Shown here in pieces: positions 1 through 284 of a DNA stretch of 284 bases. The DNA comes from a phage, in the sequence record BH153090.1; one strand, written 5' to 3'. How positions within the stretch are numbered: the stretch's first letter is position 1; each line of letters starts with the position of its first letter. A model generated the notes under the pieces. The model did no database searches, had not been told where the DNA came from, and saw only the letters and a program-made list of their open reading frames with translations. Both the position numbers and the translations under genes were made by a program.

Positions 1-65
1 ATTGCAATCATAACAACAACCATACAGAAAGCCATTACCATTGAAGTTAACATTTGTTCAACCAT
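1..65 (-). CDS. Candidate N-terminus of a small hydrophobic/membrane protein (continues beyond the left window edge); competes with other readings of this region
   Basis: Minus-strand ATG at 65..63 is followed by an open frame to position 1: MVEQMLTSMVMAFCMVVVMIA... It is preceded by AAGGTG (minus strand, + coordinates 76..71) with 5 nt spacing. The peptide is hydrophobic and Met/Val-rich, with T at codon position 2 in 14 of 21 codons. The region is only 32% GC, and every non-Met codon but one ends in A/T, unlike the + ORF. A 21-codon open frame has roughly a 15-20% chance of arising by chance at this composition. Confidence 0.25.
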   Translation of the reverse strand, partial: MVEQMLTSMVMAFCMVVVMIA

Positions 66-67
66 TA
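19..67. repeat. Repeated ACCAT(T)A / CCATTA motif, four copies, beside an (AAC)3 run at 12-20
   Basis: ACCATA at 19-24, CCATTACCATT in tandem at 32-42 and ACCATTA at 61-67; (AAC)3 at 12-20. On the minus strand these read ATGGT(T/A) and account for most of the Met-Val codons of the candidate minus-strand ORF. Functional meaning is unknown. Confidence 0.25.
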
Positions 68-82
68 TCACACCTTTAAAGT
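41..82 (+). promoter_or_regulatory. Candidate sigma70-type promoter region for the + strand ORF (weak matches)
   Basis: Two weak arrangements are possible. One is TTGTTC (54-59), a 17-bp spacer, then TAAAGT (77-82, with the T1, A2 and T6 positions conserved), which would put the transcript start near 89-90 and leave a leader of about 12 nt. The other is TTGAAG (41-46), a 16-bp spacer, then CATTAT (63-68). Neither is close to consensus. Placement rests on the AT-rich context and the position upstream of the ATG at 102. Confidence 0.2.
71..76 (-). promoter_or_regulatory. Putative ribosome-binding site (AAGGTG) for the minus-strand candidate ORF
   Basis: The minus strand reads aaAGGTGtgataATG, placing a Shine-Dalgarno-like AGGTG 5 nt upstream of the ATG at 65..63. 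The same bases can also be read as an extended -10 element (TGtGATAAT, minus strand, + coordinates 72..64), so the assignment is ambiguous. Confidence 0.25.
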
Positions 83-101
83 CATAGACGCATAAACATT
101 A

Positions 102-284
102 ATGCCAGGCCAGTTAGGATCTTATCAAATTCTTTTTCGATCAGCGTTAGATCACCGCTTAATTGACGCGTACAAAGCGATTGACGAGTGTCCTGATCTG
201 GTATACTCGACGGCAAAAAGACCGCAAAAGAATCCTGTTACTGTCTATGCTCTGCAACAATACTTGACAGCTTACATTGGATTG
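102..284 (+). CDS. Hypothetical protein, N-terminal fragment (61 codons; 3' end lies beyond the window)
   Basis: ATG at 102-104 is the first start codon after an in-frame TAA at 93-95, and the frame stays open to position 284. Translation: MPGQLGSYQILFRSALDHRLIDAYKAIDECPDLVYSTAKRPQKNPVTVYALQQYLTAYIGL. GC by codon position looks coding-like (pos1 about 52%, pos2 about 38%, pos3 about 39%) and the composition is balanced (4 D, 1 E, 3 K, 3 R, 8 L, 6 A, 6 Y). There is no Shine-Dalgarno-like purine run in the 14 nt upstream (acgcataaacatta), which lowers confidence in the exact start. I do not recognise the product. Confidence 0.5.
   Translation, partial: MPGQLGSYQILFRSALDHRLIDAYKAIDECPDLVYSTAKRPQKNPVTVYALQQYLTAYIGL
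118..198. repeat. Cluster of four GATC tetranucleotides (118, 139, 150, 195), absent from the rest of the window
   Basis: GATC occurs at 118-121, 139-142, 150-153 and 195-198. Spacings are 21, 11 and 45 bp; the first two approximate whole helical turns. About 0.3 sites would be expected by chance in 81 bp. The presence of the sites is certain; the confidence value refers to functional significance. Confidence 0.3.
181..207 (+). promoter_or_regulatory. Candidate internal sigma70-like promoter with extended -10 (TTGACG, 15-bp spacer, TGgTATACT) inside the + ORF
   Basis: -35-like TTGACG at 181-186 matches TTGACA at 5 of 6 positions. TG at 199-200 followed by TATACT at 202-207 matches TGnTATAAT at 5 of 6 hexamer positions plus the TG. 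The 15-bp spacer is at the short end of the functional range. A GATC site (195-198) lies within the spacer. This could be a chance match inside coding sequence. Confidence 0.2.

Follow-up and report, generated by a model that had tools for sequence, protein, structure and literature searches.

A 284-base phage sequence record as a probable in-vitro chimera of four GATC-ended fragments of an RB49-type genome, one of which carries the ORF108/ORF107 gene junction

The left part of the 284-base stretch of phage DNA analysed here (hereafter the window) raises the question of what its first 101 bases encode. They could hold the start of a small hydrophobic gene running leftwards, divergently from a second gene on its right; they could be the tail of an upstream plus-strand gene; or they could be an AT-rich leader. 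The initial annotation left these three readings open, and the elements from which it built them are indeed present in the letters. A minus-strand ATG at 65..63 is preceded by AAGGTG (76..71, with a 5-nt spacer) and translates to MVEQMLTSMVMAFCMVVVMIA; plus frame 1, read from base 1, meets its first stop, a TAG, at 85–87 and gives IAIITTTIQKAITIEVNICSTIITPLKS*; and an ATG at position 102 opens a plus-strand ORF that reaches the window end, with 36 nt between the two ATGs.

Aligned with phage genomes, the window tiles onto four distant loci of Escherichia phage RB49 (NC_005066.1), which we call pieces A to D in their order along the window (Table 1). The source loci lie at about 56.1, 91.1, 40.5 and 21.4 kb of the RB49 genome, 15–50 kb apart, and their orientations are mixed. 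In a blastn search of 50,697 phage records, bases 1–121 match RB49 and many other Krischvirus genomes, with 100% identity to RB49, and none of the records, which include 59 Krischvirus genomes, covers at least 80% of the window. Piece B was located by a whole-genome search with the GATC-bounded pieces, in which GATCTTATCAAATTCTTTTTCGATC and GATCAGCGTTAGATC gave exact, contiguous matches at RB49 91068–91103(−) in gene 67. A host or plasmid origin was excluded, as neither E. coli genomes (megablast) nor plasmids (blastn) gave any match to the window.

Table 1. Features of the 284-base window and their counterparts in RB49 (NC_005066.1).
Feature	Position in window	Strand	RB49 position	Evidence or remark
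Piece A	1–121		56068–56188(+)	100% identity over 121 nt; GATC at both genomic ends
Piece B	118–153		91103–91068(−)	Exact, inside gene 67; uncut internal GATC at 139–142
Piece C	150–198		40569–40521(−)	Exact 49-nt match inside the dam methyltransferase gene
Piece D	195–284		about 21432–21343(−)	97.8% identity over 91 nt, bases 194–284 matching 21343–21433; inside RB49p031
Putative ligation junctions	A/B 118–121, B/C 150–153, C/D 195–198			Each is one GATC common to both neighbours
ORF107 (RB49p107, NP_891678.1; PHROG 16035), first 21 codons	1..65	−	56068–56132	100% DNA identity
Shine–Dalgarno-like AAGGTG for ORF107	71..76	−		Direct reading; within the last ORF108 codons
ORF108 (RB49p108, NP_891679.1; PHROG 16246), last 17 codons DPNWPGINVYASMTLKV + TGA	68..121	−		Annotation, translation
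Apparently artefactual 61-codon ORF (MPGQLGSYQ...)	102..284	+		Spans all four pieces

The joints between the pieces share one property. The window contains four GATC sites, at 118, 139, 150 and 195, and in a joint alignment with the RB49 loci all three similarity breakpoints coincide with a GATC, beyond which the sequences diverge; the similarity of the window to the piece A locus, for instance, ends at base 121. Moreover, a genomic GATC directly precedes the base of RB49 that corresponds to window base 1 (L001 2997–3000). In the 164-kb RB49 genome GATC occurs about 946 times, with an average spacing of about 173 bp, and by our own estimate the probability that all seven fragment ends would fall on GATC by chance is about 1e-15. 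The tiling onto four loci, the junctions that share a GATC, the GATC in front of base 1 and this small chance expectation together argue that the window arose in vitro, by concatenation of four GATC-ended fragments of RB49 or of a near-identical Krischvirus, and is not a natural locus, a reading to which we give a probability of roughly 0.95. Fragments of the RB49 genome would have been cut by a Sau3AI-type enzyme and then joined through their sticky ends, in a shotgun clone or in a 3C-type proximity-ligation library.

Either type of library may account for the record. Chimeric shotgun inserts and 3C products made with Sau3AI, MboI or DpnII resemble the window in joining non-adjacent fragments of one genome in mixed orientation. 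In chimeric inserts made with GATC cutters, as here, one GATC is restored at every joint, and the first base of the insert follows directly on a genomic GATC. Fill-in Hi-C is disfavoured, because the junctions in the window carry a single GATC and not the duplicated GATCGATC. Since RB49 encodes a Dam methylase according to its genome annotation, Sau3AI appears to be a more likely cutter than the methylation-sensitive MboI or DpnII. RB49 was reportedly shotgun sequenced by Desplats et al. in 2002. It should be noted that two of the pieces, at 36 and 49 nt, are shorter than is usual for inserts in a clone, which counts against the chimera account. As for assembled sequence collections, the A/B junction string (121/122), the one junction string that was searched, had no match in IMG/VR, in JGI metagenome contigs or in GTDB genome contigs.

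Piece D differs from RB49p031 by two compensating 1-nt indels: TATATCTC has lost a T between 205 and 206, and GCAAAG has gained an A in the run at 226–229. Eight codons are shifted between the two positions, turning DLVYLDGKKTAKNP into DLVYSTAKRPQKNP. These indels occur in no phage record of our search (best identity 97.8%), and the string carrying the deletion is absent from IMG/VR, where the wild-type string is present. They are probably read errors, which single-pass reading would explain. Piece D also contains a TTGACA (window 264–269), which is the −35 element of a ‘hypothetical early promoter’ annotated in RB49 inside RB49p031, upstream of gene 45; the −10 hexamer of this promoter falls just past the window end.

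The tiling bears directly on the plus-strand ORF that starts at position 102. In native RB49 the frame from this ATG closes after 15 codons, MPGQLGSQLYSTSHK*, and runs antisense to ORF108 at its conserved end. Read onwards from the same ATG in the window, piece B runs antisense to gene 67, piece C happens to lie in the dam reading frame (DHRLIDAYKAIDECPD is found in RB49 Dam) and piece D, but for the compensated frameshift, happens to lie in that of ORF031. It is because the dam and RB49p031 pieces are in their native frames that the ORF remains open and has a partial match to PHROG 16137. In a PHROG scan of the chimeric ORF residues 21–61 match phrog_16137, the RB49p031 family, and residues 1–20 match no family. 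The length of 61 codons is the apparent product of ligation to unrelated DNA. A 44-aa minus-strand ORF at 82–216 is likewise chimeric, as it contains the gene 67 peptide DLTLIEKEFDKI. The proposal that the ORF from ATG102 is the natural neighbour of the small hydrophobic ORF is not borne out, since bases 122–284 come from three other places in RB49.

We may wonder at this stage whether the phage itself could have produced such a mosaic, with distant segments recombined in an in-vivo rearranged Krischvirus genome or in an encapsidated mini-DNA. Modular shuffling and mini-circles have been described for RB49 and phi1, and RB49-type phages shuffle modules via PeSL elements (PMC4122927), the promoter/stem-loop cassettes that this source attributes for RB49 and phi1 to Arbiol et al. 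(2010). Piece A is, moreover, drawn from a block of small hypothetical ORFs, which would suit such an origin. Against this, the junctions are GATC and not PeSL promoter/stem-loop sequences, the 36- and 49-nt segments stem from the interior of the coding sequences of gene 67 and dam, which they disrupt, and the orientations are mixed. The absence of a genome with the arrangement (0/59 Krischvirus genomes cover at least 80% of the window) and of the A/B string from the contig collections scanned also weighs against a natural mosaic, which we consider very improbable. PeSL-mediated recombination as its cause was rejected, given that the pieces meet at GATC sites within coding sequences; neither the window nor any of its junctions holds a PeSL. 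Even less probable is a mosaic joined at GATC in vivo, in which a GATC-specific nuclease and a phage ligase would scramble the DNA into small encapsidated or replicating molecules. If true, this would constitute a restriction–ligation route of shuffling distinct from PeSL recombination.

Whatever its neighbours in the window, the region flagged by the initial annotation (positions 1–101) lies wholly within piece A and is authentic RB49 DNA. It holds the junction of two genes that are both encoded on the minus strand, the first of which, ORF108, belongs to the early region. In RB49 the ORF107 coding sequence is annotated at 55974–56132(−), with a full product of 52 aa, and the ORF108 coding sequence at 56135–56449(−), with a product of 104 aa that matches PHROG 16246 with E = 2e-72. 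The TGA of ORF108 (70..68) stands 2 nt ahead of the ATG of ORF107 (TGAtaATG), so that only two bases of the flagged stretch (66–67) are non-coding, and the ribosome-binding site of ORF107 is embedded in the final codons of ORF108 (AAGGTGTGAtaATG; AAG GTG TGA ta ATG). The Shine–Dalgarno hexamer, the ORF108 stop and the ORF107 start codon are invariant in 11 Krischvirus genomes, and the annotations of RB49 and ten further Krischvirus genomes show the two genes to be co-directional. From the position of the Shine–Dalgarno hexamer inside the end of ORF108 and the 2-nt gap, we infer that ORF107 may be translated off the ORF108 mRNA, by coupling or re-initiation. With its start 2 nt beyond the stop of a gene in the same orientation, ORF107 needs no promoter of its own. 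Over window bases 1–121 there is no difference from RB49 ORF107 and ORF108; the remainder of both genes lies outside the window. The junction is an ordinary one, already annotated in dozens of Krischvirus genomes.

Three features of this part of the RB49 genome may be recorded here. The annotations of ORF108 and ORF109 overlap by 44 nt (L001 3339–3382; NC_005066.1 56406–56449). The start of ORF108 is uncertain: a GTG is annotated, a longer version of 112 aa, also with a GTG start, is possible, and SSG23 annotates the longer form. Finally, outside the window and 11 nt downstream of the ORF107 stop, the minus strand carries a conserved G-rich hairpin, GCGGGTAG-loop-CTACCCGC (L001 2876–2896; NC_005066.1 about 55943–55963), with a variable loop and with stem changes across Krischvirus genomes. 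This hairpin is similar to the stem-loop part of the PeSL cassettes, but it is not accompanied by a TTGACA-N17-TATAAT promoter.

The divergent layout can now be judged on its native ground. According to this reading, the small hydrophobic ORF would run leftwards and a true gene rightwards from ATG102, and the promoters and UTRs of the two would overlap, with regulation by antisense transcription or occlusion. The two ATGs do exist, 36 nt apart, and the small ORF is real. Yet the rightward ORF natively has 15 codons, antisense to the end of ORF108, and is long only through ligation; positions 66–121 are the 3′ end of the co-directional RB49p108, and ORF107 follows the stop of that gene by 2 nt. 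We found no promoter-like site (a σ70-like hexamer pair) on either strand of the window, no terminator-like site, no match to an Rfam family in the window, and RNA folding at the ORF108/ORF107 junction that was no better than that of shuffled sequence (z = −0.01). With promoter, terminator, Rfam and folding results all null in the window, the divergent-promoter and antisense scenario has no basis, and we regard a true divergent pair as extremely unlikely. The comparison with membrane-toxin genes that had been drawn for this arrangement fares better in one part than in the other. A protein of 52 aa with two hydrophobic helices is indeed encoded, but its gene does not appear to form its own transcription unit with an overlapping antisense RNA gene. 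A system of the type I toxin–antitoxin kind is not supported, as ORF107 stands in a long co-directional string and neither an opposite-strand promoter nor an Rfam family was found. The toxin-like, divergent reading is an artefact of a chimera read without its context.

The second reading of the flagged region takes plus frame 1 (…IAIITTTIQKAITIEVNICSTIITPLKS*) as the C-terminus of a real plus-strand gene. This frame is open over the ORF107 region in 11/11 aligned relatives, and in RB49 it extends leftwards to a 71-aa ORF with a GTG start. It behaves as a classic shadow ORF, that is, an antisense frame that shares its wobble positions with ORF107. Its pN/pS of 0.63, compared with 0.27 for ORF107, comes with radical changes (for example, IAIITTTIQ to IANRTTPTQ), and in 4/11 genomes the aligned sequence opens with a stop codon, which lies upstream of the GTG of RB49. 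Moreover, the frame is annotated in 0/11 records, and all genes annotated in the first 62.7 kb or so of the RB49 record are on the opposite strand. A plus-strand gene ending here thus has hardly any credibility. The same holds for a non-coding promoter or leader at 1–101, for the left region is AT-rich as the initial annotation stated but not intergenic, being covered by two conserved annotated coding sequences in all but the two bases mentioned above, with neither promoter-like and terminator-like sites nor an Rfam family found and with folding at the level of shuffled sequence.

What stands is the minus-strand frame, which continues leftwards in RB49 into a sensible gene, the 52-aa ORF107 (RB49p107). 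Three observations establish the proposed small hydrophobic ORF as a real gene: it is annotated, it is intact and always 52 aa long across the 11 Krischvirus genomes aligned, and its pN/pS of 0.27 is the lowest of the six frames in that alignment. Seventeen of the 33 variable columns of the 159-nt gene in these 11 genomes fall at codon position 3, and the substitutions remain hydrophobic. The 21 residues encoded in the window are identical to those of RB49, and the native 52-aa product matches the PHROG 16035 profile over positions 1–52 of 52 (E = 1.9e-37). The N-terminus had been described as Met-rich and hydrophobic; the hydrophobicity holds, but the Met-richness is not conserved, with Val or Leu at 3/9 Met positions in the JSE lineage.

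The Kyte–Doolittle profile of ORF107 peaks at residues of about 5–23 and 30–46, with PKERMN in between. An AlphaFold2 model, computed from a family alignment headed by a sequence with 90% identity to RB49 ORF107, shows helices at 2–21 and 25–51 with a mean pLDDT of 78. ORF107 is thus a putative inner-membrane protein with a predicted helical-hairpin fold, and by the positive-inside rule its basic PKERMN loop would be cytoplasmic. A role at the membrane, for example in exclusion or in the timing of lysis, is speculation. Small hydrophobic proteins are a feature of T4-type early regions, T4 Imm and Ac being examples. ORF107 is like them in its size, in its two hydrophobic helices and in its non-essential neighbourhood on the early strand, but the likeness is one of resemblance only. 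Searches with Pfam on ORF107, ORF108 and ORF031 returned only sub-threshold noise.

The homologues of ORF107 found through a word index are all 52-aa proteins of the Krischvirus type, with at least 79% identity, together with one truncated entry of 34 aa. When the profile of the ORF107 family was run against 1.8 billion representatives, it added one credible distant relative of 53 aa (E = 2.5e-5) and one weak match of 78 aa; apart from this metagenomic relative and the weak match, no similarity to ORF107 was found outside Krischvirus. The 53-aa relative (P0016) is encoded at L018 553–714 (ENA ERZ27254724 k141_41760), in a co-directional string of small genes whose last member is a Peptidase_M15_4 gene of 129 aa. 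In RB49 the order is comparable: ORF107, ORF106, 105, 104 and 103, followed by the 129-aa endolysin ORF102. This syntenic string suggests that the module is conserved in a more divergent phage, and the conserved neighbourhood supports ORF107 as a real gene, although it assigns it no function.

The analysis has, in the first place, a value for quality control. If this 284-base record is taken as genomic, a 61-codon gene and a divergent promoter region will be called, both of them spurious. The sole biological point is a modest one, namely that ORF107 is conserved, is under purifying selection and belongs to the same co-directional string as the endolysin gene.
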